From: Candidatus Saccharimonadales bacterium
Lineage (GTDB): Bacteria > Patescibacteriota > Saccharimonadia > Saccharimonadales > JACDBH01
NCBI GenBank assembly: GCA_049292975.1
Contig: JBATRZ010000062.1
Span: 1 to 55,033, forward strand
Length of the DNA: 55,033 nt
Reading direction: 5' to 3'
Shown: one piece after another, positions 7,060 through 45,755 of the stretch
Layout of the letters: each line of letters opens with the position of its first letter
Numbering within the stretch: the stretch's first letter is position 1
Translations under genes and position numbers: made by a program
The notes under the pieces: model-generated
The model's database searches: none
Seen by the model: the letters and a program-made list of their open reading frames with translations, nothing else
What the model was told of the DNA's origin: nothing

Positions 7060-7176
7060 GCCAGAAATTTCACAGTTTTCATTTGGCATTTTACAATAAT
7101 TTTTCATTTTACATCTGTTATTGGAGTCATTTGTGAAATGTGAATTGTGAAATTAATGAAAATTGTAAATTGTTAC
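7060..7176. repeat. Gene-less inverted-repeat module of the TGTGAAA word family, downstream of rpsF
   Basis: The left part carries AAATTTCACAG...CATTTTACA...TTTTCATTTTACAT. The right part carries TTTGTGAAATGTGAATTGTGAAATTAATGAAAATTGTAAATTG. It shares the 15-mer TGTGAATTGTGAAAT and the 9-mer TGTAAATTG with 25459-25500. Confidence 0.75.
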
Positions 7177-8603: not shown

Positions 8604-8778
8604 ATTGTAAAATTCAGCATTGGATAGATTTCCCTAGTAAAAAGCTGCTCTTTTGCGCTGCAAACTCCTACAGCCTTCGCAACGTAGCTATGGCTACGCT
8701 TTGTCGGCTCTAGAAGTTTTCGCTGCAAAATCTTCTGCTTTTTATAGGCAGAAACTACCCAGTGCTGAATTTTATAGT
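8604..8778. repeat. Non-coding segment of about 175 bp closed by a 20-bp inverted repeat
   Basis: 8604-8623 (ATTGTAAAATTCAGCATTGG) pairs with 8759-8778 (CCAGTGCTGAATTTTATAGT). It forms 20 bp including 3 G:T pairs that work only on the plus strand. The interior contains duplicated GCTGCAAA words and two small hairpins. Confidence 0.6.
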
Positions 8779-8847: not shown

Positions 8848-10212
8848 TTACAGGCCTCGGGACGGCTGCGTGCCAGGCTTGAAGACATCCAAGTATGCAA
8901 GGTTCCAGAACGGTGCAACCGTACCTGCCTGGGTGGGGTTGTCTACCGGGTAGTATGTGTCCCTGACTTCTCCATATGCTGCAGGTATATCCGTTGAGCC
9001 AGTAATTACCAAGAACCTCTGCTTACCGCCGCCCACCGCCATAACACTGCCTGCGCTAACTTTGCCGTAGCCAGGCAAGTTTGGGCCGGAGTCAAGGTAT
9101 GAATGCTTTAGTGTCCAGCCATTTTTACTAACCTCATCCAACATCTGCTGGTGTGTCAGCGGATAAGCGGTAGTGTTGTACTTGGTGTACACCTCGTATT
9201 TAATTCCAGGCGCACCGCTAAACTCATAACTATAGGTAATAATCTGCCCGGCATCGTTTTTTATTTCCGTCACTTTAGGAGTACCTAAGTATGATTTTAA
9301 ATATCTAAAGTTATACCCTGCCTGTGTGTTATCCAGCTGGGCATAATCCTGGCCTTTCGCTGCGAGATCTGCCGCCTCACGGCTAAAACCAAGTTCACTA
9401 AATGCACCCTCAAGTGAAGCAAAATCGCCGCTGCGCATCTCGATATCCTGCGTAATCCCGAAACTCAAGTTATCGTCACTTACAGAATCCTTATAAATAG
9501 CCACTTTACTGAGCTGCGCCGTACCGGCATTGATGGTCATGTGCACCATGAGCGTATCGCAGTTTGCATCGTACTTTGGGTCATCTTTGGATTGAACAGA
9601 CTTGCCGTATAAATTATACGAACCGTCCGGACCAGGCGTCACCACAGCACCATCTTGTAGTACGTTGCCGTCTTTATCCGTCAGATCCAGACTAGCACCC
9701 ATGGAGCGTATTAGAACTGAATCCTCACCCACGTAATCCCTGATGTCAAACGCCTGCACATCAGAGTCTCCGCTATAGCTCTGGTACAGACCGCTTAATG
9801 AGCTTGTCTCGGCAAGTGCTGTTGTTGTCCTGTCCTTGAATAGCAGCGTGGTTGTAGACCAAGGGTTAGTATCAGAGCCGGTACAGATAAGTGCTTTCGG
9901 GCCAAAATATTCCTGCTGCTCAATCTTCCAGAAGGTTATCTCATCCTCAATATTACTCAGCTGCTCAGCCTTCATAGTGTCTGCGTACAGCTCGGTTGCC
10001 AGCTTGCTTACTGCTTGGGTTATTGCACTTTGCTGGAGCTTAGAGTCATGCCGCTTCAGCAAATAACCGGCCCCTAAGGCAACAACTAATCCAATGCTAA
10101 TCCCAAGCACCAGCCAGCGCTTGCGCGGCCGTCTTTTAGATACCGGCGGTTGCGGCGATTCGGGTACTGGACTGGCTGCACTGCCAAGCGGTTGGGAATC
10201 AAGCTGCTGCAT
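8848..10212 (-). CDS. Membrane-anchored extracytoplasmic hypothetical protein (454 aa)
   Basis: Pro-rich N-terminus, then a single TM helix (WLVLGISIGLVVALGAGYLL), then a large Ser/Thr/Asp-rich domain. Confidence 0.55.
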   Translation of the reverse strand: MQQLDSQPLGSAASPVPESPQPPVSKRRPRKRWLVLGISIGLVVALGAGYLLKRHDSKLQQSAITQAVSKLATELYADTMKAEQLSNIEDEITFWKIEQQEYFGPKALICTGSDTNPWSTTTLLFKDRTTTALAETSSLSGLYQSYSGDSDVQAFDIRDYVGEDSVLIRSMGASLDLTDKDGNVLQDGAVVTPGPDGSYNLYGKSVQSKDDPKYDANCDTLMVHMTINAGTAQLSKVAIYKDSVSDDNLSFGITQDIEMRSGDFASLEGAFSELGFSREAADLAAKGQDYAQLDNTQAGYNFRYLKSYLGTPKVTEIKNDAGQIITYSYEFSGAPGIKYEVYTKYNTTAYPLTHQQMLDEVSKNGWTLKHSYLDSGPNLPGYGKVSAGSVMAVGGGKQRFLVITGSTDIPAAYGEVRDTYYPVDNPTQAGTVAPFWNLAYLDVFKPGTQPSRGL

Positions 10213-10226
10213 ATCTATATAATACT

Positions 10227-12401
10227 CTATTCTTCCTCGGGCTCATGCGCCCCGGTATCGCCAGCGCCGCCAAAGACGTCATCCATGGAACTTACCAGCA
10301 CCTCCCGCGGGCGCGAACCGTCCGCCGGGCTGATAATGCCCTGCTCTTCCATCTGCTCGATCAACCTGGCGGCTTTGCCGTAGCCGATGCGCAGCTTGCG
10401 CTGCAGCAGGCTGGTGCTGGCCTTGCGGGCATCTATGACCACATGGACGGCGTCCTTAAGCTCGGCCTCGTCGCCGGACGTGCCGTCGTTAGAGTAATCG
10501 GCTACAATACCGCCCTTGCCGTTCAGCTGGACGGGTTGGCTAACCACCTCATCATCATACTGCGGGCCGCGCTGCATCCGCAGGAAGTCCATGATAGCGT
10601 GCGTCTCTTCATCGGTAATAAAAGCTCCCTGAATACGCTTAGGCTGCGGCATGTCAGGGGTCTGGAACAGCATGTCGCCCTGGCCCAGCAGCTTCTCGGC
10701 GCCGGAATTATCCAGGATAATGCGTGACTCAAGTTCCTGGGATACCGTAAAGGCAATGCGGGCCGGGATGTTGGCCTTGATTAGGCCGGTGATAACAGTA
10801 GCCCGCGGACTCTGCGTGGCCAGCACCAGGTGGATGCCGACAGCCCGCGCCTTTTGGGCGATACGCACCAGCAAAGCCTCAACATCACGGGCGGCCATCA
10901 TCATAAGGTCGGCCAGCTCGTCTATGACGATGACGATGTAGGGCATGCCTTCTTCCTTCATGACGGCGTTGTAATCAATAATATTGCGCTTTTTGTTTTC
11001 CTCAAGCGTACGGTAGCGGCGCTCCATTTCGGCCACCGCCCACTTGAGGGCGCTGATGGTCTTCTCGGGCTCGGTGATGATTGGGGTCAAAAGGTGCGGA
11101 ATATCGGCATACGGCGCCATTTCGACCCGCTTGGGATCTACCAAGATGAGTTTGAGGTCGCTCGGGCTGTTGCGATAAAGCAGGCTGGTAATTAGCGTGT
11201 TGATCATAACCGACTTACCCGCCTTGGTCTGGCCGGCGATAAGCAGGTGCGGCATGTCTTCGATAGCGGATACGATGGGGACACCTGCGATGTCTTTGCC
11301 CAGGGCAAAGCCAAGCTGCTTGTTCATGGCCGACCAGTCGCTAGAAGCCAGCACACTGCTGATACGCACCATTGCAGGCTTGACGTTAGGCACTTCCACG
11401 CCCACAGCTTTCTTGCCGGGAATCGGCGCCTCGATACGGATAGCCTTGGCGCCAAGGTCCAGCGCCATGTTGCTGTCCAGCGCTTTAATCTTGCTCAGTT
11501 TCACGCCTGCCTGAGGTTTGAGGGTGTACTGGGTAACGCGCGGCCCAACATTAGCCCCTTCCATCTCAACCGAGATATTGAAGTGCTCCAAAGTATCCTG
11601 GATGGTCTTGGCGTTGGCGTTCACGTCGCCCGGGTCTGCCTTGTCCTGCTTTTGGTTCAGCAGCTCCAGGCCCGGGAACTCCCAGTTAGGATCGGCTGCG
11701 GCGGTTAGGGCCGAATGATCCTCTTTGGCCGTCAGCTTAGCAGGCATGCTGTTCCTGACACTGGCCGTAGCTGGCGTCTTGTTATGCTCTACCGGTACGC
11801 CCTCTTTGAGCTGGAAGTTACGCAAGCTGGCAGCACCAGCCAGGGCAGCCATTTCTTCTTGCTCGCCTTCATTGTCTTTTTTCCTGAATAACCCGGCTAC
11901 CTTACCCAGTACAAGCGGTGAGATGCCAAAGCTGAAGAACAGCGCCAGCATTGCCAGAACCAAGAATAAGATACTGGCAGGTATCGGGCTCAGCGCGGTC
12001 AGCACCATGTTGCCTGCCAGGCTGCCCACCTTGCCGCCCAGGCCGCCCGTGTAGGCGCCATCGGCCGCACGGTCAGCGAAAGCCGTAAACAACCAGCCGG
12101 ACAGGAATGCCAGCAAGAATACCATGCTGAAGGAATTGCTTAAGGGCACCTTGTGATCCTCGCTTTTGAACTTGAGCACCCCAAAGTACACCAAAGCCAC
12201 CGGCGCGAGCCAGGCAGCCCAGCCAAAGGCCCAGTAAAAGCCGCTGAACAAACCCTTGGGCAAGTCGCCGCCGGCGCCAAAACCGCCGACCAGCAGGAAC
12301 AGGGCGGCCACAAACAGCAGGATAGCCGCCGACTGGCGCCAAAACAGGTTTGGCTCCTTGTATTCTTCTTTGACTGATTTCCGCTTTTTCTTTTTTGCCA
12401 T
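10227..12401 (-). CDS. ftsK: DNA translocase FtsK
   Basis: N-terminal TM helices, Walker A AGQTKAGKS, Walker B IVIVIDELADLMM, and a C-terminal gamma domain (LLQRKLRIGYGKAARLIEQMEEQGII). Confidence 0.95.
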   Translation of the reverse strand: MAKKKKRKSVKEEYKEPNLFWRQSAAILLFVAALFLLVGGFGAGGDLPKGLFSGFYWAFGWAAWLAPVALVYFGVLKFKSEDHKVPLSNSFSMVFLLAFLSGWLFTAFADRAADGAYTGGLGGKVGSLAGNMVLTALSPIPASILFLVLAMLALFFSFGISPLVLGKVAGLFRKKDNEGEQEEMAALAGAASLRNFQLKEGVPVEHNKTPATASVRNSMPAKLTAKEDHSALTAAADPNWEFPGLELLNQKQDKADPGDVNANAKTIQDTLEHFNISVEMEGANVGPRVTQYTLKPQAGVKLSKIKALDSNMALDLGAKAIRIEAPIPGKKAVGVEVPNVKPAMVRISSVLASSDWSAMNKQLGFALGKDIAGVPIVSAIEDMPHLLIAGQTKAGKSVMINTLITSLLYRNSPSDLKLILVDPKRVEMAPYADIPHLLTPIITEPEKTISALKWAVAEMERRYRTLEENKKRNIIDYNAVMKEEGMPYIVIVIDELADLMMMAARDVEALLVRIAQKARAVGIHLVLATQSPRATVITGLIKANIPARIAFTVSQELESRIILDNSGAEKLLGQGDMLFQTPDMPQPKRIQGAFITDEETHAIMDFLRMQRGPQYDDEVVSQPVQLNGKGGIVADYSNDGTSGDEAELKDAVHVVIDARKASTSLLQRKLRIGYGKAARLIEQMEEQGIISPADGSRPREVLVSSMDDVFGGAGDTGAHEPEEE

Positions 12402-16491: not shown

Positions 16492-17088
16492 TTATTTAAT
16501 TTTCTGTAATATGGCGGGGATGCGCGCGAAGTCATCTATTAGTGTCTGGCGCATGCCGCCGTTGTATAACGCTGCTGCGGGATGGAAAAGTGGTAAATAC
16601 ACTTGCCCTTTGTAGCGTTTGGGTTCGCCGTGAACCTGGTTGATTGAAGCCCCAGGCAAAAAGCAATTCATACTGTGACGTCCTAGTGTCACGACAATCT
16701 TAGGTTGAATTACCTCTAACTGTGCCTCCAAGTATGGCAGGAAAGCGGCTTTTTCGTCCGGGCTGGGGTCGCGGTTGTTAGGTGGCCGGTACTTGACGAT
16801 GTTGGTGATGTAAATGTCCTGGCGTTCCAGCCCAATGGTTGCGAGCATTTCGTTCAGGAACTTGCCTGCCGCACCCACAAACGGAATGCCCTGTTCGTCC
16901 TCGTTCTTGCCTGGTGCTTCACCGATGAACACAATGTCTGCATCAGGATTACCATCCCCAAACACGAGACGATTGGCCGTACGAGCCAAATCCGGGCAGA
17001 CATTCTGACGCAAAATCTCTTCTTTGATTTCATCAAGAAGCTTTTGCTTGGAATCTGGAATCTGGAATTTAGAATCTGGGTCAGCCAC
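16492..17088 (-). CDS. Uracil-DNA glycosylase, family 4
   Basis: VFGDGNPDADIVFIGEAPGKNEDEQGIPFVGAAGKFLNEML plus a C-terminal HPAAAL. GTG start at 17088 preceded by an AAGAGGGG Shine-Dalgarno sequence. Confidence 0.85.
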   Translation of the reverse strand: MADPDSKFQIPDSKQKLLDEIKEEILRQNVCPDLARTANRLVFGDGNPDADIVFIGEAPGKNEDEQGIPFVGAAGKFLNEMLATIGLERQDIYITNIVKYRPPNNRDPSPDEKAAFLPYLEAQLEVIQPKIVVTLGRHSMNCFLPGASINQVHGEPKRYKGQVYLPLFHPAAALYNGGMRQTLIDDFARIPAILQKIK

Positions 17089-17136
17089 CGTGCACCCCTC
17101 TTATTCCAAATTCCAGCTTCAAACTTCCAGCTTCTG
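17050..17136. repeat. Heptamer-word imperfect palindrome spanning the UDG start codon
   Basis: The left arm is GGAATCT GGAATCT GGAATTT AGAATCT GGG (17050-17080). The right arm is TTCCAAA TTCCAGC TTCAAAC TTCCAGC TTCTG (17104-17136). Confidence 0.8.
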
Positions 17137-17205
17137 CTTTCATGTCTGCCCTAATCTGGTCGAGCTTAGCTTGTTTGTCTTTTGCACTCACGTGCAGATT
17201 ACCTC

Positions 17206-20151: not shown

Positions 20152-20889
20152 TTAAATCTGTCGAATATCTTGCAGACTGAAATCTGCAACATCTATAGCA
20201 TCGGCCAGCTTGTAGTTGCCAACCTCAGTACGCTTCAGGCTGCTCATGTAAGCTCCCGTACCAAGCTTTTCGCCGGTGTCACGGGCCAGGCTGCGAATAT
20301 AAGTGCCCGAGCTTACCCTGGCCGTAAAACGGACCGCCGGATAAGAATATTTGATATCTGATATCTGATAGACAGTCACGGGACGGGGCTCAATAATGAC
20401 TGCTTTGCCCTCGCGTACCAGTTTGTACGCCCGCTTGCCGTCTACTTTGATAGCGCTGAAGGCCGGCGGCTGCTGCAGAGTAACGCCCACAAATGTATTC
20501 AGCACCTCCCGCACCTCGCCCTCACTAGGCATTTTTGCGCTGGTTTTGGTCTTTTCGCCCTCGCCGTCATCTGTTACAGAGGTCGTGCCTAAAATTAGTT
20601 CAGTCTCATATACCTTATCCAGCTTGCTAAACTCCTGCGCACGTTTGCAGTACGTGCCGGTCACGATAATTAGCAGGCCCGTAGCCAGCGGGTCCAGGGT
20701 ACCCGTATGCCCCACTTTTACTTTCGGTGAAGAATTCTGAATTGAGATTTGAGGATTGAGGGGATTGTTTCCTCCCCTGTTTTCTCGTTTCTCGTTTCGT
20801 AATTCTGTCCGCAGGACATTACGGACCTTGGCTACGACATCAAAAGACGTCCAGCCCGCCGGCTTATTAATCAGAACAATTCCATCCAT
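20152..20889 (-). CDS. truB: tRNA pseudouridine(55) synthase TruB with in-frame low-complexity insertion
   Basis: MDGIVLINKPAGWTSFDVV...GHTGTLDPLATG...SSGTYIRSL. Start set at the ATG at 20889, because the upstream extension in the track has no homology. Confidence 0.9.
   Translation of the reverse strand: MDGIVLINKPAGWTSFDVVAKVRNVLRTELRNEKRENRGGNNPLNPQISIQNSSPKVKVGHTGTLDPLATGLLIIVTGTYCKRAQEFSKLDKVYETELILGTTSVTDDGEGEKTKTSAKMPSEGEVREVLNTFVGVTLQQPPAFSAIKVDGKRAYKLVREGKAVIIEPRPVTVYQISDIKYSYPAVRFTARVSSGTYIRSLARDTGEKLGTGAYMSSLKRTEVGNYKLADAIDVADFSLQDIRQI
20732..20805. repeat. Heptamer-word imperfect palindrome, in frame in truB
   Basis: GAATTCT GAATTGA GATTTGA GGATTGA GGGGA-TTGTTTCC-TCCCC TGTTTTC TCGTTTC TCGTTTC GTAATTC. 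Confidence 0.8.
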
Positions 20890-21149: not shown

Positions 21150-23114
21150 TTACTGTTGGGGGAACATCGGCGGAGGGATAGGCGGTGGTGGCGGCAACGT
21201 ATTATCATGCTGCTGCGCAGGTGCCGGAGCCGATGGATCAACACCGTTCAAGACAGGTTGCGGCGGCATGGACGGCATGCCAAGCGGCTGGGCGCCCAAA
21301 TCTACCCGCGGCTGCGGGCGGTCCGGATTATAATCTGCCCTACTAATTGCCTCATCTACGGCGTTGCGCGCGGTGTCTACCCCTGCTGCAGGTGCAGGCT
21401 CGCCGTCCATGCCCAAGTGCGGACTGTGGACCGTCTTCTCGATATCCAGCAGGGTCGTTTCGTCAGGGATATCTGGCACTTCGGGCCCGGCTGGAGCTTC
21501 GGGAGCCGGCGGTTGTGCCGGTTGCGGTGCAGCCTCAGGATTGGAAGCCGGCTGTGCACCCGGCGGCATAGGCTGATCGTACGGCGGACCGGCATTTGGC
21601 AAGGTAGGCAGGTCCAGTTCGGGAACCTCCCCGGTTGATTCAGGGAACGGCTGGCCGGGATCGGTCGCCTTGACATCGCTGATCTCAGCGTGAATTTCTG
21701 GACGGGTGAGCAAGCTGCTCAGATTGGCCAGCTCGGCATCCAGGCTAGCGTCGTCCGGCCCCGGTGCGGCCTGCAGCGGGCTAACAACCTTGTGATGCGG
21801 CTGCAGCGGCTTTTCCCTGCGGACCATATTGCCATGCTCGTCAATATGTATAGAACTATCCTTGTCCTCGTGAACGGGCGCGTGCTCTATCGGCGCGAAT
21901 ATGTCTACCGGATTATCAGGCGCTATCAAACCATCCGGCGGCTGGGAGCCAGGCAATAACGGATCATACGATTCTTCCCCTTCAGAAGGCAGCAGCGGAG
22001 AAACAAATGCTTCTTCGTTGCCCTCAATATTATCCATGACCTCAAGCGACGGGTCTTGATGCTGAGGCTCGCTTGGCGGCAGGTACTGGCGCTCCTGCTG
22101 CGGTTTTTCATCCGGCACTTCTGGTAATTCGGCTGTCGGCTGGGCGGCGGCTTCCTGGGGCTGCTGCCGCTCTGTCTGTAACCTCACTTCTTCCTGCTGG
22201 TTGTCATCGTGGTTGATGGTCAGCGAACCATCGTCACTTACGGCGGCGGCCGGCAAAGGCTGCGGCTCGTCATGCGGTACTTCTACCGGCTGATCGGCCT
22301 GCAGCACCTCATCTTTTTGCAGCTCGTTGGCAATCAATTGCTGGTTGGCACCGGCGGCCATCAGCTGCGCGGCCATGGTCATAATCTTCGGGCTGGTCTT
22401 GGCGTTCTTGAAGCGCTCGGTCTCGGCTACGATACCGGTCAAGAAGGCGGTGGCTATCTGTTCATCAATCAGGCCGCCCTGGAATGCCTCAGAGATACTT
22501 ACCAGCATTTCGCTCAAAGAACTGGCAGCGGGCTCCTGCCAATTAAGCGCACCCAGCTCGGACTGGTTCTGCCCGGCCGTGATAGTCACTACGGTAGCAT
22601 CGTGCAGGATACGGCCATGGGCGGTAATAGCCTGGTCCAGCTCATCGCGGACGGTGACACCCAGGGCCATGACTACATCTACGTTAAAATCGCCTTGGGT
22701 AAACTCAAGATCTTGCTCTGATATAGAGGTGCGGTACGGGGTGATAAAGATCTTCACCACGTTTTCTTCCACCTTGTAGCGCAGCTTGTCGGCCTTGCTC
22801 TTATCTAAAGAGACAATGAAGTCGCGTAAAGAATCGGTATTCTGCTCGATGGTGTCCTCGGGCTTTAGGAACTCAAGCGTAGAGGGCACCTTGCCGCTGA
22901 AGACGGCGGTGGCATGCTTGCCCAACTTGTTTAGCATCAGTGTCAGGCCGATGGCGGCCGCCAGCTCGTCTACCGAAGGGTTGGAGCGGACCGTCACCAG
23001 CACATTGGTCGCCTGCTGCACACGGGCAACTACCGACTGCTTCGGTGTCGATTGCCGCTGGTCCTGATCCAGGGATTGATCTTTAAACTGATCTTGTGGC
23101 TGGCTTGGATCCAT
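21150..23114 (-). CDS. DHH/NrnA-like protein with degenerate catalytic motifs and a roughly 380-aa Pro/Gln/Glu-rich tail
   Basis: The N-terminal 270 aa align by eye to the NrnA layout (LVTVRSNPSVDELAAAIGL..., ...TGIVAETERFKN), but the DHH position reads VVMALGV. The rest is low-complexity and proline-rich. Confidence 0.5.
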   Translation of the reverse strand: MDPSQPQDQFKDQSLDQDQRQSTPKQSVVARVQQATNVLVTVRSNPSVDELAAAIGLTLMLNKLGKHATAVFSGKVPSTLEFLKPEDTIEQNTDSLRDFIVSLDKSKADKLRYKVEENVVKIFITPYRTSISEQDLEFTQGDFNVDVVMALGVTVRDELDQAITAHGRILHDATVVTITAGQNQSELGALNWQEPAASSLSEMLVSISEAFQGGLIDEQIATAFLTGIVAETERFKNAKTSPKIMTMAAQLMAAGANQQLIANELQKDEVLQADQPVEVPHDEPQPLPAAAVSDDGSLTINHDDNQQEEVRLQTERQQPQEAAAQPTAELPEVPDEKPQQERQYLPPSEPQHQDPSLEVMDNIEGNEEAFVSPLLPSEGEESYDPLLPGSQPPDGLIAPDNPVDIFAPIEHAPVHEDKDSSIHIDEHGNMVRREKPLQPHHKVVSPLQAAPGPDDASLDAELANLSSLLTRPEIHAEISDVKATDPGQPFPESTGEVPELDLPTLPNAGPPYDQPMPPGAQPASNPEAAPQPAQPPAPEAPAGPEVPDIPDETTLLDIEKTVHSPHLGMDGEPAPAAGVDTARNAVDEAISRADYNPDRPQPRVDLGAQPLGMPSMPPQPVLNGVDPSAPAPAQQHDNTLPPPPPIPPPMFPQQ

Positions 23115-23442: not shown

Positions 23443-23790
23443 ATGCCAATTATCAAATCAGCGAAGAAGCGCGTCAAGCAAACCCGCAAAGCGACCGTCC
23501 GCAACGCCCGTACCAAGCGTTCTTTACGCAGCTCGCTCAAGGGCTTTTCAAAAAAGCCAAGCGCAACGTCAAAGTCCAAGGCCGAGAGCAACCTGGACAA
23601 GGCCGCCAAGAAGGGCCTGGTCCACAAGAACAAGGTCGCCCGCAAGAAGCGTCAGCTCGCAGCCAGCGCCAAAAAGGCCGGCGTCAAGCCCGCTGCCGCC
23701 AAGAAGGCCGTAGCCAAGAAAGCGCCTGCCAAGAAGGCAGCCCCAGCTAAGAAACCAGCCGCCAAAAAGGCTCCTGCCAAGAAAAAATAA
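23443..23790 (+). CDS. rpsT: 30S ribosomal protein S20 with Lys/Ala/Pro-rich C-terminal tail
   Basis: MPIIKSAKKRVKQTRKATVRNARTKRSLRS is the bS20 N-terminus. The C-terminal 40 aa are AKKA/PAKK repeats. Confidence 0.9.
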   Translation: MPIIKSAKKRVKQTRKATVRNARTKRSLRSSLKGFSKKPSATSKSKAESNLDKAAKKGLVHKNKVARKKRQLAASAKKAGVKPAAAKKAVAKKAPAKKAAPAKKPAAKKAPAKKK

Positions 23791-23829
23791 ACAGCCTTCG
23801 GCTAATATTTGATACTTGATATCTAATAA

Positions 23830-23853
23830 ACCGCCCCAACAGGGGCGGTTCTT
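23830..23853 (+). terminator. Rho-independent terminator of rpsT
   Basis: ACCGCCCC-AACA-GGGGCGGT followed by a T-rich tail. Confidence 0.7.
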
Positions 23854-23871
23854 AATAATCCGTAAAATCCC

Positions 23872-23925
23872 CATCTGTAAAAGGTCAGACCCTTGGGTCT
23901 CCTTCCTTGGGTCTCCTTCAAGCCA
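23872..23925. repeat. Diverged inverted-orientation copy of the ATCTGTTAAGGGTCAGACCCTT element, with its own 14-nt tandem word
   Basis: CATCTGTAAAAGGTCAGACCCTT, then GGGTCTCCTTCCTT GGGTCTCCTTCAAG. Confidence 0.6.
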
Positions 23926-24145: not shown

Positions 24146-25060
24146 CTAGATAGTAAGGAGGAAGTGCTGCACGGCGTCGTCGGCGTCTATCATCTCTGAT
24201 TTTAACCGCACGTCCAGCGCCAGTGCCCTGTCTACCAGATCCTTGACCTGTTTTTGCGACAAATTGTGTGTAAGATTGAGGGTTTTGTGCACAACGTATG
24301 GATTGAGCTTGGCGGTGCGGGCTATTTCGTCCGCGCCGTCGCTCTCGTTGAACTTGACCACCGCCAGCACATGCACCTGCCAGGCAATCATGCCCATGAT
24401 GGCCTGCGGCTCTACTGCTTGCTTGCGCTGGTCCTGGTACAGCTCCAGCACGCGCCGCTTGTTGCCCGCGAAGGCGGCATCTATCAGGTCGAACACACTG
24501 CTCCCCGGCAACGGTTCGGTAAGCAGGTCTATGCTGGCCTTCGTAACCTTGTCTTCATACAGCAGCAGCTTGTCCAGCTCGTTACTTAGGCTCATCTGAT
24601 TAGTGCCAAGCCGCGACACCATGTAGCTAGCATCCGTCATTGTCAGGCTGCCGCCGCGCGCCCTGGCCTCGCCTACCAGCCAGGCCGCCAGGCCGCGCTC
24701 GTCAAGCTCAGTGAATTCACGCAGCTCGGCACGCTTCTTGAGCGTCTTATACAGGCCCAGGCGCTTATCGAACTTGCGCTCGTTAATAATAAGATCGGTG
24801 GTATCAGCAACGGCATCCAGCAGCTTGCCGGGGTCATCGGCCAGCGCTTTGTTGGCGGCGGGACTTAAAAGCATTATCATCCGGCGCGGCGCTAAAAAAG
24901 GCAGGCTGGACACGCTCTCTAGCAGGCGGCCGAATTCCACATCACCAGCGTCAATTGTTTCCAGCCCAAAATCGCCATGCTCGGCTACGAAACCAGCCGT
25001 AAGCTTCTTCAGCTCAGCACTGCGGGCAAAATCATTACTGCCGGTTAAAACAAGTATCAT
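24146..25060 (-). CDS. holA: DNA polymerase III subunit delta
   Basis: The N-terminus MILVLTGSNDFARSAELKKL...LESVSSLPFLAPRRMIML and the overall 304-aa helical layout are typical of HolA. Confidence 0.8.
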   Translation of the reverse strand: MILVLTGSNDFARSAELKKLTAGFVAEHGDFGLETIDAGDVEFGRLLESVSSLPFLAPRRMIMLLSPAANKALADDPGKLLDAVADTTDLIINERKFDKRLGLYKTLKKRAELREFTELDERGLAAWLVGEARARGGSLTMTDASYMVSRLGTNQMSLSNELDKLLLYEDKVTKASIDLLTEPLPGSSVFDLIDAAFAGNKRRVLELYQDQRKQAVEPQAIMGMIAWQVHVLAVVKFNESDGADEIARTAKLNPYVVHKTLNLTHNLSQKQVKDLVDRALALDVRLKSEMIDADDAVQHFLLTI

Positions 25061-25064
25061 TTAT

Positions 25065-25087
25065 CAATTCACATTTCACATTTCACA
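25065..25087. repeat. Left inverted-repeat arm bracketing four-helix-bundle gene 2
   Basis: CAATTCACATTTCACATTTCACA is complementary to 25477-25499 at 22 of 23 positions, with a 17-nt perfect core. Confidence 0.9.
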
Positions 25088-25095
25088 TTAATGTA

Positions 25096-25458
25096 TCATT
25101 TGCCATTTTTCAGTGTAGAAATGATTTTCTGCAAGATGAAAAGCAGCTGGCTTACCTCATCTATTTCATTATGACAGGAAAAATTCTCATTGGCTTCCTG
25201 TAGGAGCCTTAGCCAGTAGCGCGTTTCTGCAGCTTCTTTCTTGGCTATGAATATTTTATTTCTAAAATCCAAGCGGGATGCGGCATTGTTTGCCTCTGTA
25301 TAATTGGCCCCGATACCGGTTGCAGAACGGATTAATTGGGTCTTGATGATTCTGTTCTCTGAGGTTTCTGGCAAAGGTTTCACAAGCCGTATGATCTGAA
25401 GCGAGAACTTAATTGTACGCTCCTCTAATTCTTTGGATCTGCCTTGTGAATTGTCCAT
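25096..25458 (-). CDS. Four helix bundle protein (23S rRNA intervening-sequence protein family)
   Basis: ...FSLQIIRLVKPLPETSENRIIKTQLIRSATGIGANYTEANNAASRLDFRNKIFIAKKEAAETRYWL fits the PF05635/TIGR02436 pattern. The gene is low-GC. Confidence 0.85.
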   Translation of the reverse strand: MDNSQGRSKELEERTIKFSLQIIRLVKPLPETSENRIIKTQLIRSATGIGANYTEANNAASRLDFRNKIFIAKKEAAETRYWLRLLQEANENFSCHNEIDEVSQLLFILQKIISTLKNGK

Positions 25459-25476
25459 TGTGAAATTATTGTGAAT

Positions 25477-25499
25477 TGTGAAATGTGAAATGTAAATTG
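25477..25499. repeat. Right inverted-repeat arm bracketing four-helix-bundle gene 2
   Basis: TGTGAAATGTGAAATGTAAATTG, made of heptamer words TGTGAAA. Confidence 0.9.
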
Positions 25500-25564
25500 C
25501 TCATGCTTCCTCTGCGAGAATTTTTACGGTGGGGTTGTAGCATGGGCGTATACTTGATTGCGAC

Positions 25565-27742: not shown

Positions 27743-28705
27743 CTAGACAGACTGGCAACGGGGGCAAGTATGGGTGCCGCGGCCGGCAACTTTGGTTTTG
27801 ATAATAACCGTGCCGGGGTGGCGCGGGCAGTCCTTGCCCTCACGCCGGAACACACGGGCAAAATCTATGTAGCTCCCCTTCTTACCCTCGGCATTCACGT
27901 AATTCCTGTCCGTCGAACCGCCCTTTTCTATAGCTAATTCCAGTACTAGCCTAAGCTCAGAATATAGAATATAGATTTTGGATTTTGGAATATCGGCCAC
28001 TTTGCTTGCGGGGTGGATTTTGGCGCCCCAAAGTGATTCGTCGGCGTAGATATTGCCTACTCCGGCCAAGACAGTTTGATCGAGTAATGCTGCTTTGATG
28101 GACGTCTTTGCCCTTTTTTGCAAACGTTCGTAGAGAATTTTGGCGGTAAACTCATCACTCAGCGGCTCGGGCCCCACCTTCTTGAAGAAGTCTATATTTG
28201 GCACCTCAACAGTTGGCAACAGCCGCATCCAGCCAAACTTCCGCTGGTCATTAAAATACATGTGAGAGGACTGTCCTCTCACATCTTCGAGGTGGAGGGT
28301 TGCGCGGGTGGATTTGTCTGGCAATCTGCCGATGAGACTGTCGTTGGGATGCCCTGCCCCAAACCGCTCCTCTGGAGTAAAGTCCTTGGTCTTTAGTCTT
28401 CCGTCTTCAGTCTTGACTGGTGACCGCTGACTGGTGACCGCTGACTCCCGTTTACGCACGTAAACAAGCTGGCCCGTCATCTTCAAGTGAATTACCAGGC
28501 TGTAGCCAGAGTCTAAATCTATTATTAAAACTTTGGCACGACGGCGTACATCAATAATTTGTGCGCCAATTAAAAACTGCGCTACATCACCCGGCGCATT
28601 GGGAAAAGACTTGGGCCAATCAAAATCTACTGATTTGACCGTTTTGCCAATAATTAATTTATGCAAGCCACGCCGGACAGTCTCTACCTCTGGTAATTCA
28701 GGCAT
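27743..28705 (-). CDS. mutM: Formamidopyrimidine-DNA glycosylase (Fpg/MutM) with in-frame insertions
   Basis: MPELPEVETVRRGL, H2TH (LLDQTVLAGVGNIYADESLW), and a C-terminal zinc finger CPRH...CPRCQ. About 50 aa longer than E. coli Fpg. Confidence 0.9.
   Translation of the reverse strand: MPELPEVETVRRGLHKLIIGKTVKSVDFDWPKSFPNAPGDVAQFLIGAQIIDVRRRAKVLIIDLDSGYSLVIHLKMTGQLVYVRKRESAVTSQRSPVKTEDGRLKTKDFTPEERFGAGHPNDSLIGRLPDKSTRATLHLEDVRGQSSHMYFNDQRKFGWMRLLPTVEVPNIDFFKKVGPEPLSDEFTAKILYERLQKRAKTSIKAALLDQTVLAGVGNIYADESLWGAKIHPASKVADIPKSKIYILYSELRLVLELAIEKGGSTDRNYVNAEGKKGSYIDFARVFRREGKDCPRHPGTVIIKTKVAGRGTHTCPRCQSV
27959..27993. repeat. Heptamer tandem array in mutM coding sequence
   Basis: AGAATAT AGAATAT AGATTTT GGATTTT GGAATAT, encoding PKSKIYILYSE on the minus strand. 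Confidence 0.85.
28262..28282. repeat. 21-nt perfect palindrome GTGAGAGGAC-T-GTCCTCTCAC, in frame in mutM
   Basis: Read directly from the sequence. Encodes VRGQSSH. The flanking bases extend the palindrome to ATGTGAGAGGAC.GTCCTCTCACAT. Confidence 0.95.
28389..28445. repeat. Heptamer-periodic module, in frame in mutM
   Basis: GTCTTTA GTCTTCC GTCTTCA GTCTTGA C, then TGGTGAC CGCTGAC TGGTGAC CGCTGAC. 57 nt, equal to 19 codons. Confidence 0.85.
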
Positions 28706-36270: not shown

Positions 36271-39038
36271 ATCTCGCCCCAGTTTTTACCGCTATCAACA
36301 TCAACCTTCAGCTTAACTCCAAGCTCCGGATAGACATGTTCCATCGTTTCTTTCATCAGCTCGCCAACTTTTTCGGCATCGTCGGCATGGCATTCCACCA
36401 GGATACTGTCATGAATCTGCAACAACATGCGGGGCACGCCCGCAGGAGTGAGGAGTGAGGAGTGGGGAGTGGGTTTTTCAGACCCTTTCTTCTTACTTCT
36501 TTCTGCTTTCTCCGCAAAAGTTTGATCAAACTTTTGCTGCAACCGTACCATTGCTAATTTTGTGAGATCGGCCGCGCTGCCCTGGATAGGCATATTGATG
36601 GCCTGGCGGTAGGCGCCTTCGCGCACCATGAAATTGCTGGACTTTACGTCGGGCGTGGGGCGGCGGCGACCCAGTATCGTCTCGACATAGCCCTTCTTTA
36701 GGGCCTGTTCGCGCAAAGACTCGATGTATAGCTTTAATTTGGGACGGATCATAAAGTACTTGGCGATGAAATCGCGCGCCTCGGCAAAACTCATGCCCGT
36801 ACCCTCGGCCAGCCCGTGCGGCCCCTGGCCGTACATGATGCCAAAGTTCACGGCTTTGGCGTTATAGCGCATTTGTTTGGTGACTTCCTCGGGATCTATG
36901 TTCAGCACCGCGGCAGCAGTCAGCACATGGACGTCCTGGTCTTCGTTGAAGGCACGGATCATGTCTTCATCGCCGCTCAGCGCGGCAGCCAGACGGATTT
37001 CAAACTGTGAGTAGTCAGCGCTCACGAACACGTGGCCGGGCCGGGCCACAAAGCCGGTACGGATTTTTTTGCCAAGTTCAGTCCGAACGGGGATGTTCTG
37101 CAAATTTGGCTCGTTGCTGCTCAGGCGCCCGGTGGGGGCAATGGTCATCCGGAAGTTGGTGTGCACGCGGCCGTTTTCGTCCATCTGCTTTGGCAGCGTA
37201 TCGACATAGGTGCTCTTGAGCTTGGTGTACTCGCGGTATTGTTCGATACAGTCGATGATAGGGTGCAGCGCCCGTAGTTTGTTCAACACATCCGAGGCGG
37301 TGGAAAAATGCCCGGCTTTGCCCTTCTTTACGTTCCACGGCTGGCCTTCGTAGCCGTGCGTCAATTTGGCCTGCGTGCTTGAAGTTGGCAGCTGTAATTT
37401 CTCAAATAATATTTCGGACAATTGCCCCGGGCTGGAGATATTGAACTCTTGGTCGGCATGGCCGTAGATGGTCTGCTCGATGTCGCTGATTTTATCGGCC
37501 AGCTCATCGCCCATTTTGGCCAAGTAGCCGGCGTCCAGGCCAATGCCCTCGTATTCCATGCGCGCCAGAACCGGAATCACCGGCCACTCGACTTGGTCGC
37601 TGAGAGTAATCAGCTTGGTCAGCTCGCTCATACTCTCGGCCTGGTAATTCTGCAGGGCCTTAATGACAGCGACTAGCTCGCCTGCCCGTTTATGCAGCTC
37701 TTCTGAATTCAGCGCGTCAAGGCTGGCGGTTTCGTGGCCAAGGTCAGCAAAAGCCAGTTCGGTCAAAGTAGTAACGCGGCGGATGGAATTGATAAGGAAC
37801 GCGCCCACTAGTACATCATGACTAACTTTTGGTAATTCCACGCCAAGGTCCAGCAGCACCTTCAGACTGGCCTTAAGGTCGTAGCCTATGACATTCTTCA
37901 GCTCACCAAGCTTGGCAGCCACGGCTTTTTTATCCAGGGCCTTCAGGTCGAGTACATAGGCTGTCTTATCATCTGCTAGCACGATGGTTTCGGCACCGCG
38001 GCCATGTTGCCCGGACGCGTAGCTGTGCAGCACCATCTCGTCCTGTATCTTGATAGCCTTTAACGCGCCGTTCATGATGACCAGCTCTGTCTTCAGCGGT
38101 TCGATAGCGCCTGCCGTCACTTTATGCACGGGCGCTTCACTGTTATCCAGGACCTGCATGTACTCGGGCAGTTGGCGCAGCAGGCTGCGGAATTCCAGGT
38201 TGGTCAGCAGGCTCTTAAGCGCATGCACGTCCAGGTCGCGCGTGTCCGTCGCCTGAAGATCCAGGTCTACCGGCGCGTCATCCATTAGTAGCGCGACTTG
38301 CTTGCTTAAGTAGGCCGACTCTTTGCCCGCCTCAAGCTTTTTGCGGGTAGTTTCTTTGATTAACGCCAGGTTGTCATAGATGTTATCGAGCGTCTTGTAA
38401 TCCTGCAGCAGTTGCACGGCGGTCTTCTCGCCCACACCCGGCACACCTGGGATGTTATCGGAGCTGTCACCTTTGAGCGACTTCAAATCCAGGAATTGTT
38501 CTACCTCTATACCGTGTTTTTGTTCAAAATATTCAATGTCAAACCGTTCGATGTTGCTAAAGCCCTTTTTGAGCACATAGACGTGTGAATGCTGGCCGAT
38601 GCACTGCAGAGCGTCCAGATCACTGGTGATTAGCATAGTCTCCAGGCCGGCTTTATCCGCCTTCTTAGCCAGGGTACACATGATGTCATCGGCCTCGTAA
38701 TCATCCAGCTCATACAGGGGCCAGCTGAAGGCTTTGAGCAGGTCGTGCAGGATAGGAATCTGCACGTAGAAATCCGGCGGCGCAGGCTTGCGGCCGGCCT
38801 TGTACTGCGGGTACAGCTCTAGCCGTTTGCGGATGTTGGTCTTGGGCTTGTCCCAGGCCACAGCCACATAATCGGGCTTGAGCCTCTTCAGCAGCTCCAG
38901 TGACATGGCGGCAAAGCCGTAGACGCCGCCCGTAGGCGTACCGTCCTTGGTGCTGAGGTTGGGCATGGCATAATAGCCGCGGTAAAACACGCTCTTGCCA
39001 TCTATGATTGCCAGTTTCTTCCGAGCAGTATCAGCCAT
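36267..39038 (-). CDS. polA: DNA polymerase I
   Basis: 5'-nuclease domain (LAIIDGKSVFYRGYYA), then polymerase motifs DYSQFEIRLAA, RYNAKAVNFGIMYG and QIHDSILVE. ATG at 39038. Confidence 0.95.
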   Translation of the reverse strand: MADTARKKLAIIDGKSVFYRGYYAMPNLSTKDGTPTGGVYGFAAMSLELLKRLKPDYVAVAWDKPKTNIRKRLELYPQYKAGRKPAPPDFYVQIPILHDLLKAFSWPLYELDDYEADDIMCTLAKKADKAGLETMLITSDLDALQCIGQHSHVYVLKKGFSNIERFDIEYFEQKHGIEVEQFLDLKSLKGDSSDNIPGVPGVGEKTAVQLLQDYKTLDNIYDNLALIKETTRKKLEAGKESAYLSKQVALLMDDAPVDLDLQATDTRDLDVHALKSLLTNLEFRSLLRQLPEYMQVLDNSEAPVHKVTAGAIEPLKTELVIMNGALKAIKIQDEMVLHSYASGQHGRGAETIVLADDKTAYVLDLKALDKKAVAAKLGELKNVIGYDLKASLKVLLDLGVELPKVSHDVLVGAFLINSIRRVTTLTELAFADLGHETASLDALNSEELHKRAGELVAVIKALQNYQAESMSELTKLITLSDQVEWPVIPVLARMEYEGIGLDAGYLAKMGDELADKISDIEQTIYGHADQEFNISSPGQLSEILFEKLQLPTSSTQAKLTHGYEGQPWNVKKGKAGHFSTASDVLNKLRALHPIIDCIEQYREYTKLKSTYVDTLPKQMDENGRVHTNFRMTIAPTGRLSSNEPNLQNIPVRTELGKKIRTGFVARPGHVFVSADYSQFEIRLAAALSGDEDMIRAFNEDQDVHVLTAAAVLNIDPEEVTKQMRYNAKAVNFGIMYGQGPHGLAEGTGMSFAEARDFIAKYFMIRPKLKLYIESLREQALKKGYVETILGRRRPTPDVKSSNFMVREGAYRQAINMPIQGSAADLTKLAMVRLQQKFDQTFAEKAERSKKKGSEKPTPHSSLLTPAGVPRMLLQIHDSILVECHADDAEKVGELMKETMEHVYPELGVKLKVDVDSGKNWGEI
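36445..36513. repeat. Heptamer-word imperfect palindrome, in frame in polA
   Basis: GGAGTGA GGAGTGA GGAGTGG GGAGTGG GT-TTTTCAG-ACCCTTTC TTCTTAC TTCTTTC TGCTTTC TCC. 69 nt, equal to 23 codons. Confidence 0.85.
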
Positions 39039-43884: not shown

Positions 43885-45666
43885 TTACTTACGTTTGACT
43901 TGTTTTAACAGGTCGTTCAAATCTTTGTCGGCGGTAAGCAGGCGGCGGGTTTCGTCGTCGCCGGCATCGGCAAGCCGCTCGTTTATAAGCTGTTTTTGAT
44001 GTTTTACGTAGTGCGCAACTAAGCGTTCTTGCAATCGAGTGACTTCCCAGTGGAGTTCTGTAATCTCGAGCGATCGATATAATTCATCGAATTGTAATGC
44101 AGTAATTTTTACATAATCGGCCATGGATTGCAACTGTTTAAAATTACTCCTTTGGGCAGATCCAGCGGGGGTGCCTTTAGTTGCGGCTCCAAAATCGGGG
44201 TTTGCCTTTAAAAACTCGAATAATTTTCGTGCCTGGACTTCTATAAACATGTCTGGGGTCAGTTGCGGCACTTCGTCTCTAAGACCCGGGTGCATAAGCA
44301 GCAATGACAGCAGGTGCTGCTCGGTCTTGCGCTGCTCAATCGTTTCCTTGCTCTCGTTTCCAGGGATTATCCTTGGAATTCTGAGGCGTTTGGATGATGG
44401 GGATGGTTGATACAGCTTGGCGCGCATCGCGTCTTTGCTGACGCCGATAGTTTTGGCCAGTTCCGATATGTAGTGGTCCTGTTCGACTTGGTCGGTGAGG
44501 CCGCGGATGATATTGAGCACGATATCGGTGAATTCGCGTTTGCCTTTGCCCGACTCAATGTCCAGCAGGTTCTTGTAGCGGTCAATCAGCCAGTCCACGG
44601 CGTATTGATGTTTGTCTATGGCCTGCTGCCAAAACATGGGGTCCTGACGGATGAGCTCATCGGGGTCTTTGCCGTCAGGGATAGTGATAATGCTTACATT
44701 GACGCCGATTTTCTGCGCCAGCGGGATGGCCCGCTCGGTGGCATTGATACCGGCACGGTCGGCATCAAACGCAAAGCGGATATCGCCCGCGTACCGGCTG
44801 AGGTCTTTAAGATGGAACTCTGTCAGGGCGGTACCGGCCGAGGCCACAACGTTCTTCACACCCGCCTGGTGGCTGGCCACAACATCCAGGTTGCCCTCTA
44901 CCACTACGCTGTAGCCGGCCTTGCGGATGGCATCTTTGGCCAGGTGCAGGCCGTAAACCTGGCGGCCTTTGTCATACAGCAAAGTGGCCGGCGTGTTGAT
45001 GTATTTGGGCGATTCTTTATCGTCGGTAAGGCTTCGGGCCGTAAAGCCTACCACCCTGCCCTGCGCATCTGATAGCGGCACCATTATCCGCCCGCGGAAC
45101 ATATCGCCCAGGCCGCGGTAACGCTTTGTTACAAGCCCTGCCCGGGTCATTTCTTCTTCTGTAAAGCCCTTCTTACCTAGGAATGTGTACAGGGCATCGC
45201 CCGTGTTGGGCGAGTAACCAAACCTGAATAAAAGCACGGTTTCTTTGCTAAATAACCGCTTGCCCAGCAGGTATTCCAACGCCGGTTTGGAGCTCTTTAG
45301 CTGGGTCTGATAAAACCGTGCCGCCAACTCAATAACTTCATACAAACGCTCCTTCACCTTGTGAGAGGACTGTCCTCTCACATTGAATTGCTCTAGGTCT
45401 ACACCGGCCTTGCGCGCCAGCAGCACCAGTGTTTCCTTAAAATCAAGGCCTTCGATCTCCTGGATAAAAGTGAACATGTCACCGCCCTTGCCCGAGCTGA
45501 AGTCGTGCCAAATCTGCTTCTCGGGACTAACCATGAAGCTTGGTGTCTTCTCGTTGCCGAAGGGGCTTAGGCCCTTCAGGTTGCGGCCGGAACGTTTTAA
45601 CTGGACATACTCGGAAATAACATCCTCTATAAGCAGCTTGGCTTTGACCTCTGACACCGCATCCAT
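43885..45666 (-). CDS. dnaG: DNA primase DnaG (zinc-ribbon ligands substituted)
   Basis: ...GLSPFGNEKTPSFMVSPEKQIWHDFSSGKGGDMFTF (zinc-binding-domain homology) and a TOPRIM domain (VVVEGNLDVVASHQAG...FDADRAG). Confidence 0.9.
   Translation of the reverse strand: MDAVSEVKAKLLIEDVISEYVQLKRSGRNLKGLSPFGNEKTPSFMVSPEKQIWHDFSSGKGGDMFTFIQEIEGLDFKETLVLLARKAGVDLEQFNVRGQSSHKVKERLYEVIELAARFYQTQLKSSKPALEYLLGKRLFSKETVLLFRFGYSPNTGDALYTFLGKKGFTEEEMTRAGLVTKRYRGLGDMFRGRIMVPLSDAQGRVVGFTARSLTDDKESPKYINTPATLLYDKGRQVYGLHLAKDAIRKAGYSVVVEGNLDVVASHQAGVKNVVASAGTALTEFHLKDLSRYAGDIRFAFDADRAGINATERAIPLAQKIGVNVSIITIPDGKDPDELIRQDPMFWQQAIDKHQYAVDWLIDRYKNLLDIESGKGKREFTDIVLNIIRGLTDQVEQDHYISELAKTIGVSKDAMRAKLYQPSPSSKRLRIPRIIPGNESKETIEQRKTEQHLLSLLLMHPGLRDEVPQLTPDMFIEVQARKLFEFLKANPDFGAATKGTPAGSAQRSNFKQLQSMADYVKITALQFDELYRSLEITELHWEVTRLQERLVAHYVKHQKQLINERLADAGDDETRRLLTADKDLNDLLKQVKRK
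45361..45381. repeat. 21-nt perfect palindrome GTGAGAGGAC-T-GTCCTCTCAC, in frame in dnaG
   Basis: Read directly from the sequence. Encodes VRGQSSH. Confidence 0.95.
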
Positions 45667-45672
45667 TCTATT

Positions 45673-45747
45673 AGGGTACAGGGTTTAGGGTTTGGGGTAC
45701 AGCGTAAGGGCTTTTACTAAGTCCCGCACCCTCGACCACTCACCCTG
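45673..45747. repeat. Intergenic G-word / C-word imperfect palindrome in the dnaG divergent promoter region
   Basis: AGGGTAC AGGGTTT AGGGTTT GGGGTAC AG ... CCCGCACCCTCGACCACTCACCCTG. It shares GGGGTACAG with 23317-23326. Confidence 0.7.
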
Positions 45748-45755
45748 TTTTTGGT

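Follow-up and report, generated by a model that had tools for sequence, protein, structure and literature searches.

Rickettsia palindromic elements (RPE), reportedly described by Ogata et al. in 2000, form alignable consensus families of about 100–150 bp that are confined to Rickettsia; they lie between genes and also in frame within conserved protein genes, where they give tolerated surface peptides. The subject of this report is a hairpin built of 7-nt words that lies in frame within truB, the gene of tRNA pseudouridine-55 synthase, of Candidatus Saccharimonadales bacterium (assembly GCA_049292975.1). The DNA analysed, called the window below, is 55,033 nt long (contig JBATRZ010000062.1, positions 1 to 55,033), and it carries further hairpins of similar design, two of them in frame within polA and fpg. 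These elements resemble RPE in forming hairpins and in being placed in frame at permissive positions of the conserved open reading frames (ORFs) truB, polA and fpg. Unlike RPE, the hairpins of the window have no consensus and share their words only in part, they are about 70–90 nt long, their host is a patescibacterium, and their design is tied to gene cassettes of the family PF05635. The favoured reading, with a probability of about 0.55, is that the truB segment is a heptamer-array hairpin without an ORF, one of a type that has become numerous in this lineage; it would have settled in a loop that tolerates it and would be translated as a passenger peptide.

Translational-bypass inserts, such as those of phage T4 gene 60 and the 'byp' inserts of Magnusiomyces mitochondria, also form hairpins; they break the reading frame, and the ribosome jumps over them. 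In the inserts of truB, polA and fpg, by contrast, the frame is continuous and without a stop, and ordinary translation is expected. In being small dispersed palindromes able to spread, the hairpins are like repetitive extragenic palindromes (REP), bacterial interspersed mosaic elements (BIME) and repeats of the miniature inverted-repeat transposable element (MITE) type, but inspection by eye found no GTAG/CGTC head, no terminal inverted repeats around a conserved core and no cognate transposase. Intervening sequences (IVS) of rRNA, of which excision by RNase III is the hallmark, have a terminal-inverted-repeat stem with a PF05635 ORF in the loop, and this is the exact layout of the PF05635 cassette at 25054–25504 of the window. 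Unlike rRNA IVS, such cassettes lie between protein genes, and the truB hairpin has the stem without the ORF and stands in a frame that is predicted to be translated. ORF-bearing 23S rRNA intervening sequences (PF05635 / 23S_rRNA_IVP) are mentioned for rRNA insertions of the Candidate Phyla Radiation (CPR) in PMC11270868, where 64 of 66 insertions in Saccharibacteria rRNA are short (≤250 bp) and without introns or homing endonucleases. These short insertions could be the same heptamer hairpins residing in rRNA. A description of 7-nt periodicity in IVS-type stems was not found in the searchable literature.

Heptameric simple sequence repeats (SSRs) are the other close comparison. Known examples are the cyanobacterial short tandemly repeated repetitive (STRR) sequences, GGGAATC of Xanthomonas and GGGGAYT of Nostoc, arrays reported as under-represented in coding regions (PMC4692102), and TAACTGA of Beggiatoaceae (PMC4679880). 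Their tandem 7-nt units are strongly over-represented in comparison with units of other lengths, often stand ≤50 bp from start or stop codons and sometimes form inverted pairs; a period-7 excess is likewise present in the window, and the words at 17049–17079 (TGGAATC) are nearly those of Xanthomonas. In contrast to the SSR genomes, which use one word or a few words genome-wide, the window has locus-specific words in paired inverted arms, and several of its arrays lie in frame within housekeeping genes instead of between genes. A link to PF05635 is reported neither in PMC4692102 nor in PMC4679880.

The truB insert

The hairpin lies in the linker between KVR and the catalytic GHTGTLDP of TruB, which reads NVLRTELRNEKRENRGGNNPLNPQISIQNSSPKVKV in the window; RTELRNEKRENRGGNNPLNPQISIQNSS is the stretch of the predicted TruB peptide across the insert. 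The initial annotation, made from the letters alone, had described a heptamer-word palindrome of about 74 nt at 20732–20805, and both the sequence and the coordinates are as it claimed. Its estimate of the arm complementarity agrees with a hand count of 22 Watson–Crick positions in 33, with four G:T pairs in addition. The design consists of two inverted runs of 7-nt words with about six paired positions and one mismatch per word. In the first arm the self-match at a lag of 7 nt (lag-7) scores 16/21, and in the second arm Tandem Repeats Finder (TRF) reports period 7 at 20781–20798; the imperfect palindrome was not picked up by a repeat search at default extension. Inspection of truB by eye showed no target-site duplication. 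A GATATCT run noticed elsewhere in the same gene is borne out by TRF and extends to the limits given in Table 1. Its unit is the 6-nt palindrome GATATC plus one nucleotide, and a (GATATCT)n array can pair with itself with one mismatch in every 7 nt.

The periodicity exceeds that of codon-shuffled controls. Lag-7 self-match of the 108-nt linker is 0.43, against 0.28 ± 0.04 in codon shuffles and 0.32 under synonymous recoding (1/1000 as extreme in each case). Minimum free energy (MFE) of the antisense strand of the linker is −37.8 kcal/mol, against −22.1 in codon shuffles (0/1000) and −29.6 in recodings (26/1000), and the antisense hairpin score is 13 against 7.5 in controls (3–5/1000). On the mRNA strand of the linker the ungapped hairpin score is not significant. 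With dinucleotide shuffling, z of the hairpin is −6.2 on the plus strand and −5.1 on the minus strand, which is the mRNA strand. The insert is identical in five independent assemblies from different samples of the same organism, and therefore it is not an assembly artefact. Together with the orthologous hairpins in at least six other genomes and the strong statistics, this identity leaves a negligible probability for chance or an assembly artefact, an explanation that the present data already refute. These five strains are about 99% identical throughout, and the invariance of the truB insert says little more; copy-number dynamics are not visible there.

Homologues of TruB bear PF01509/PF16198, and the window protein matches solved TruB structures with E = 6e-36. 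No stop interrupts the frame through the whole insert, and the linker from helix alpha1 to strand beta2 is longer than usual, as had been proposed for an in-frame insertion lengthening TruB at this place. Compared with the solved Thermotoga TruB (1R3E), the insert measures about 28 aa (query residues 29–57 against one residue), and compared with insert-free Saccharimonadales TruBs about 22 aa (linker 42 against 19–20). In an AlphaFold2 model computed with 50 homologues (mean pLDDT 90), helix alpha1 spans residues 15–37 and reaches over the peptide of the second arm, and residues 38–58 are modelled as lower-confidence coil (pLDDT 56 at 41–50) leading back to the strand of the catalytic Asp. The model thus resembles a tolerated surface protrusion, in keeping with the surface loop that was foreseen.

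The same model bears on the view that the peptide is an adaptive extension, in which TruB gains a contact to RNA or protein through a basic helical segment RTELRNEKRENR and a loop, the palindrome being incidental. The first half of the insert is modelled as a helix with fair confidence and has many Arg and Lys residues, and the insert site is kept in many lineages. Against this, the peptide is hypervariable in sequence and length (linkers of 29–46 aa, up to 85, in insert-bearing TruBs), and its two halves are reverse-complement translations of each other, which points to a constraint at the DNA level. The lag-7 signal stands above the level implied by the peptide, as the recoding control shows, and the same DNA design occurs in unrelated proteins and between genes. 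An adaptive origin of the peptide is accordingly very unlikely.

Distribution among relatives and covariation

DNA of relatives was found by exact-protein look-up, as direct contig scans with TruB gave almost no insert-bearing relatives; the relatives are mostly short metagenomic contigs, and labels of the form L### denote loci and P#### proteins. Of the 120 closest TruBs, 64 share one short type of linker of uniform length (e.g., GQLKRETGLKKPKV) and 56 have 10–26 extra hypervariable residues at exactly the same site; three further TruBs have linkers of about 80 residues. This hypervariability confirms that the insert is not conserved in sequence. Reverse-complement halves of the insert are common to many relatives, e.g., EIRNQQLE...LIPNSSLL. 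A hairpin with a 7-nt period was found in all insert-bearing orthologues fetched (L161, L163, L165, L251 and L252), with words that differ (AGAAATT, AAAGTGA), and the site of the truB GATATCT array holds other heptamer words in L161, L165 and L251. In the alignment of six truB orthologues there is a 27-bp consensus stem broken at heptamer intervals, and 10 of the 27 pairs have compensatory double changes.

The truB of L253 retains the 5' arm alone (AGAAATC x3). Its TruB linker has 79 residues, and at 10070–10306 of this locus the rest of the hairpin is replaced by a GC-rich in-frame segment of about 150 nt with −86 kcal/mol, perhaps another element lodged inside the hairpin. Linkers of P0071 and P0077 are similar in length to that of L253.

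Loci of insert-bearing genomes have 2–6 lag-7 segments per 10 kb, compared with about 0 in some 45 other Saccharibacteria loci, and heptamer hairpins of this kind are a trait of a single Saccharimonadales lineage. The window and L163 have the fpg insert, which L165 lacks, and the lengths of Fpg genes (L251 and L253 longer, L252 shorter) suggest the same split between presence and absence. The polA insert is absent from the closest relatives of the window, 50 of 86 having a 21-residue linker, and is present with a homologous arm in L419. On a neighbour-joining (NJ) tree computed with the insert masked, which is weakly resolved, the truB insert state requires at least 18 changes; with the labels shuffled, 40 are needed. 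From these changes and the patchy fpg and polA inserts it follows that the elements were gained and/or lost repeatedly at a few permissive sites. Intermediate-length truB alleles look like partial deletions.

Heptamer hairpins across the window

The annotation of truB had called for a search for such words elsewhere in the genome, and many hairpins of this kind were found, among them the in-frame ones in polA and fpg (Table 1). There are 10–11 lag-7 segments in the window; each of the other lags between 4 and 13 gives 0–1, and this holds also for lags 6, 9 and 12, which are compatible with codons. About 18 of the 37 TRF rows have period 7, and three more have period 14. Seven of 11 lag-7 segments are within long ORFs, four of them in the insert regions of truB, polA and fpg, and at least six unrelated word families occur within the 55 kb. 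With an ungapped hairpin detector the two strands gave 12 and 9 hairpins, and each shuffled sequence, scored on one strand, gave 3–4. In a sliding 100-nt MFE scan over the window GC content dominates, and the elements are not picked out. The polA hairpin codes for about 27 extra residues between QGSAAD and QIHDS, just ahead of motif C.

Table 1. Coordinates of truB, the PF05635 cassette and the heptamer arrays and hairpins of the window.
Feature	Coordinates	Strand	Description	Evidence
Intergenic hairpin	7080–7172		TGTGAAA/ATGTAAA word family, as in PF05635 flanks	TRF, lag-7, fold
pnp-udg hairpin, ORF-less	17046–17134		(TGGAATC)x4, loop, TTCCA-type words; overlaps udg start	z −3.8 and −4.4
truB (tRNA pseudouridine-55 synthase)	20152–20889	minus	245 aa from MDGIVLINKP	ORF and translation
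Second truB heptamer array	20347–20370		(GATATCT)x3.4; codes part of VYQISDIKY	TRF
truB hairpin, arm 1	20732–20764		plus strand: GAATTCT GAATTGA GATTTGA GGATTGA GGGGA	mRNA-strand product ...NPLNPQISIQNSS
truB hairpin, loop	20765–20772		8 nt, TTGTTTCC on plus strand	MFE structures of both strands
truB hairpin, arm 2	20773–20805		plus strand: TCCCC TG TTTTCTC GTTTCTC GTTTCGT AATTC	mRNA-strand product ELRNEKRENRGG
PF05635 cassette, downstream arm	25054–25093		minus-strand reading ATGTGAA x3, TTGATAA	lag-7
PF05635 gene (23S rRNA-intervening-sequence protein / four helix bundle protein)	25096–25458	minus	120 aa	
PF05635 cassette, upstream arm	25464–25504		minus-strand reading TTTACAT TTCACAT TTCACAA TTCACAA	inverted complement of downstream arm
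Heptamer array within fpg	27957–27993		AGAATAT AGAATAT AGATTTT GGATTTT GGAATAT	TRF, lag-7
fpg/mutM hairpin, in frame	28381–28446		about 30 extra residues (RKRESAVTSQRSPVKTEDGRLKTKD...)	lag-7, TRF, fold
polA hairpin, in frame	36440–36514		plus strand: (AGGAGTG)x4, loop, (CTTTCTT)x4	lag-7, TRF, fold
Heptamer array	45671–45700		TTAGGGT ACAGGGT TTAGGGT TTGGGGT	TRF, lag-7

Between pnp and udg, a duplicate of about 33 nt of the udg N-terminal codons flanks the ORF-less hairpin, and the 5' end of udg appears to have been split or duplicated by it. An upstream ORF of 35 codons with a Shine–Dalgarno sequence and a GTG start is located at 17084–17191 on the minus strand; it opens with an ancestral-looking copy of the N-terminus of uracil-DNA glycosylase (KQAKLDQIRAD), crosses one hairpin arm and ends in the loop, and its TGA overlaps the udg GTG start (GTGGCTGA). 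The same duplicate is conserved in L161.

Locus-specific words are what would be expected if each hairpin grew in situ, by 7-nt polymerase slippage of local sequence and fold-back copying, with no tie to a dispersing element, and the association with PF05635 were a separate matter. The first words in truB are similar to the ancestral codons (CGTGAAACTGGG in L001, which lacks the insert, and CGAGAAAACAGGGG in the window), arrays of the (GATATCT)n type are self-complementary by construction, and a 14-nt (2x7) tandem duplication at 23906–23919 was found in the window strain alone among the strains compared. An excess of heptamer SSRs is known in bacteria, and a proposal puts it down to slippage (PMC4692102). 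Local growth is nevertheless unlikely. One word family recurs at separate loci of one genome: the TGTGAAA family is found at 7126, 25054 and 25464 of the window, and AAATTCG-type words at three loci in L165. Furthermore, the trait has a sharp lineage specificity and co-occurs with PF05635 cassettes in the same neighbourhoods, and at an orthologous site the bare hairpin of L163 has a 22-nt match of 95% to the arms of the L251 cassette.

PF05635 genes and heptamer stems

This orthologous site is the pnp-udg interval, where L251 has a PF05635 cassette and the window, L161 and L163 have ORF-less hairpins. The window has a single gene of PF05635, a widespread family of small genes (Pfam E = 6.5e-17, 62 bits against a cut-off of 33.8), and inverted heptamer arrays reach up to its start and stop codons. 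Flanking inverted arrays, with words of their own at each gene, were found at four of four PF05635 genes of the lineage (one in the window, two in L165 and one in L251).

PF05635 loci from other bacteria (labelled L254–L338 and L339–L418) were studied in two sets. In the set dominated by Patescibacteria, 57 of 76 loci have a flank with ≥16/21 lag-7 matches, and the counts at lags 5, 6, 8, 9 and 10 are 0, 1, 7, 0 and 0, respectively. The threshold is reached by 59% of gene-proximal flanks and by 2.3% of distal blocks, and own flanks pair at −26.5 kcal/mol, compared with −17.4 kcal/mol for mismatched pairs. Among the words of this set, the commonest are AATTTTC on the upstream side and GAAAATT on the downstream side. 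The second set, of other phyla (Acidobacteriota, Verrucomicrobiota, Chloroflexota, Cyanobacteria, Bacteroidota, Planctomycetota and others), has lag-7 arrays at 42 of 71 loci, with 0 at lags 5 and 6 and 12 at lag 8; proximal flanks are positive in 51% and distal blocks in 1.6%, and own-flank pairing is significant (p = 1.2e-6). Enrichment over distal flanks is thus 26- to 32-fold in the two sets, and a minority of loci use 8-nt units. All five genes on finished plasmids, from Planktothrix, Nostoc punctiforme, Euhalothece, Bernardetia and Chlorohelix, are flanked. In at least ten phyla, inverted heptamer arrays, with words particular to each locus, stand on both sides of PF05635 genes, and the link is strong.

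Two of the plasmid cassettes are in defence loci. The Planktothrix cassette (L334) lies between DISARM drmD and a gene of an MmeI-type enzyme, and the Chlorohelix cassette (L338) between a helicase-related gene and an N6 DNA methylase gene. Phage genomes have almost no PF05635 relatives, with two weak matches. The accumulation of 7-bp target-site duplications by repeated insertion was ruled out as a source of the arrays, as the flanking arrays are inverted and not direct. PF05635 is, to our knowledge, not a known recombinase family, and its relatives include Avd, the accessory protein of diversity-generating retroelements. No link of PF05635 or 'four helix bundle protein' to heptamer repeats was found in searchable full texts, which leave out most subscription journals, and a prior description is possible.

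The design of the truB hairpin matches that of the stems around PF05635 genes throughout bacteria. A tentative extension is that PF05635 genes, always in the loop of a heptamer stem, and heptamer-array hairpins belong to one pan-bacterial system, with the bare hairpins as empty, decayed or binding sites.

Strand asymmetry

The truB hairpin folds 4–12 kcal/mol better on the antisense strand in the window and in three orthologues, and L252 is weaker in the same direction; L251 is the exception, with −27.0 on the sense and −26.3 on the antisense strand. The polA hairpin of the window folds solely on the antisense strand (plus strand −38.3, z −3.9; minus strand −16.9, z +0.7). G:U pairs in the three in-frame hairpins number 15 antisense and 3 sense. 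The polA hairpin of L419, by contrast, folds equally on both strands and without an excess of G:U, and there is no strand bias in 75 PF05635 cassettes (40 vs. 34, p = 0.34). Because of the symmetric L419 hairpin and the unbiased cassettes, the asymmetry is taken to be secondary and to come from G-to-A and T-to-C changes in the mRNA strand, which would replace hydrophobic codons, weaken the mRNA structure and leave wobble pairs opposite. A functional antisense RNA, considered as the cause of the bias, is weakened by the same two observations.

On the plus strand, 20759–20788 fits the pattern of an intrinsic terminator antisense to truB, with the AGGGGA/TCCCCT core stem followed by GTTTTCTCGT. 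Three sites in 600 nt fit this pattern, against 0.5 expected, and the match is regarded as a by-product of composition. With its T-rich tail it could also be counted in favour of a functional nucleic-acid structure, such as an antisense terminator or processing site, a site of RNase III cleavage or translational pausing in truB mRNA, or a site bound by the PF05635 protein. A structure under selection would agree with the compensatory changes that conserve pairing while the sequence drifts, with the very strong antisense fold (z = −6.2), with the invariance of the insert in five strains and with the position of such stems next to PF05635 genes. However, the structure is dispensable, because the insert is absent from about half of the related TruBs and the insert in polA from the closest PolA relatives. 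The favoured strand varies between lineages, the cassettes are unbiased, and the five strains are too uniform for invariance to be informative. Neither a sigma-70-like promoter near the truB hairpin nor an Rfam match was found. A function of this kind is rather improbable.

Origin and maintenance of the truB hairpin

Under the favoured explanation, in which the hairpin is a translated passenger, one hairpin would have been fixed in codons of the alpha1–beta2 surface linker, with a length and frame that kept the ORF open. On translation, the second arm would lengthen helix alpha1 and the first would loop back as coil. Slippage and template switching are established mutational mechanisms for tandem repeats and quasi-palindromes; 7-nt slippage of the arrays and intra-hairpin template switching between the arms may keep the arms complementary as the words drift, and this is the most economical account of the persistent pairing. 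Selection at the protein level would remove stops and hydrophobic codons and push the mRNA strand to A and C; the outcome would be A.C mismatches in the mRNA but G:U pairs in the antisense strand. No function of the insert peptide itself would be required.

Several points weigh against this explanation. Each in-frame hairpin has its own words, with no alignable consensus and no direct sign of transposition, and no recombinase, transposase or other enzyme that moves or generates the hairpins was identified. The truB words (GAATTNN, GAAACGA) match no PF05635 cassette examined, and the proposed link between in-frame hairpins and cassettes draws on common architecture, common neighbourhoods and one orthologous site. 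Pairing kept over TruB divergence of 55–70% identity could equally be read as the work of selection for a functional structure. With at least 18 changes on the NJ tree, the insert is not established as the product of one ancestral insertion.

Other features of the window

The array at 45671–45700 is similar to plant-type telomere repeats and lies at the junction of divergent ORFs at 43885–45684 (minus) and 45708–46367 (plus). The region 23700–23920, in or near a 127-aa ORF, is hypervariable among strains that are otherwise about 99% identical; it contains the 14-nt duplication of the window strain as well as indels of 17, 20 and 27 nt. An imperfect palindrome that is not heptamer-periodic was found at 8651–8730 between two minus-strand ORFs; it has 38-nt arms, a 4-nt loop and 27 Watson–Crick and three G:T pairs. 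The gene upstream of truB (21150–23114, minus) encodes 654 aa, and the C-terminal half of the product is a long low-complexity tail rich in Pro, Gln and Ala; its orthologues have no Pfam hit on record. No match to Rfam at the gathering score, no tRNA in a tRNA scan and no rRNA was found in the whole window.

Significance

In-frame palindromic inserts in essential genes have so far been a curiosity of Rickettsia, and the hairpins described here are an independent case in the reduced genomes of CPR bacteria. A tRNA-modifying enzyme, a repair polymerase and a DNA glycosylase are affected, and the repeat grammar is one of 7-nt word arrays and not of a consensus element. With such inserts, proteins look more divergent than they are, and CPR marker genes may be wrongly aligned, annotated or placed in trees. 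The architecture of PF05635 genes and heptamer arrays is a separate lead, possibly more important than the truB insert, and a testable handle on the over-representation of heptamers and on the nature of ORFs in rRNA 'intervening sequences'. If a single system does underlie both, it would account for the excess of heptameric repeats (STRR and others), the ORF-bearing intervening sequences of rRNA and the in-frame inserts in TruB, PolA and Fpg of some Saccharibacteria.

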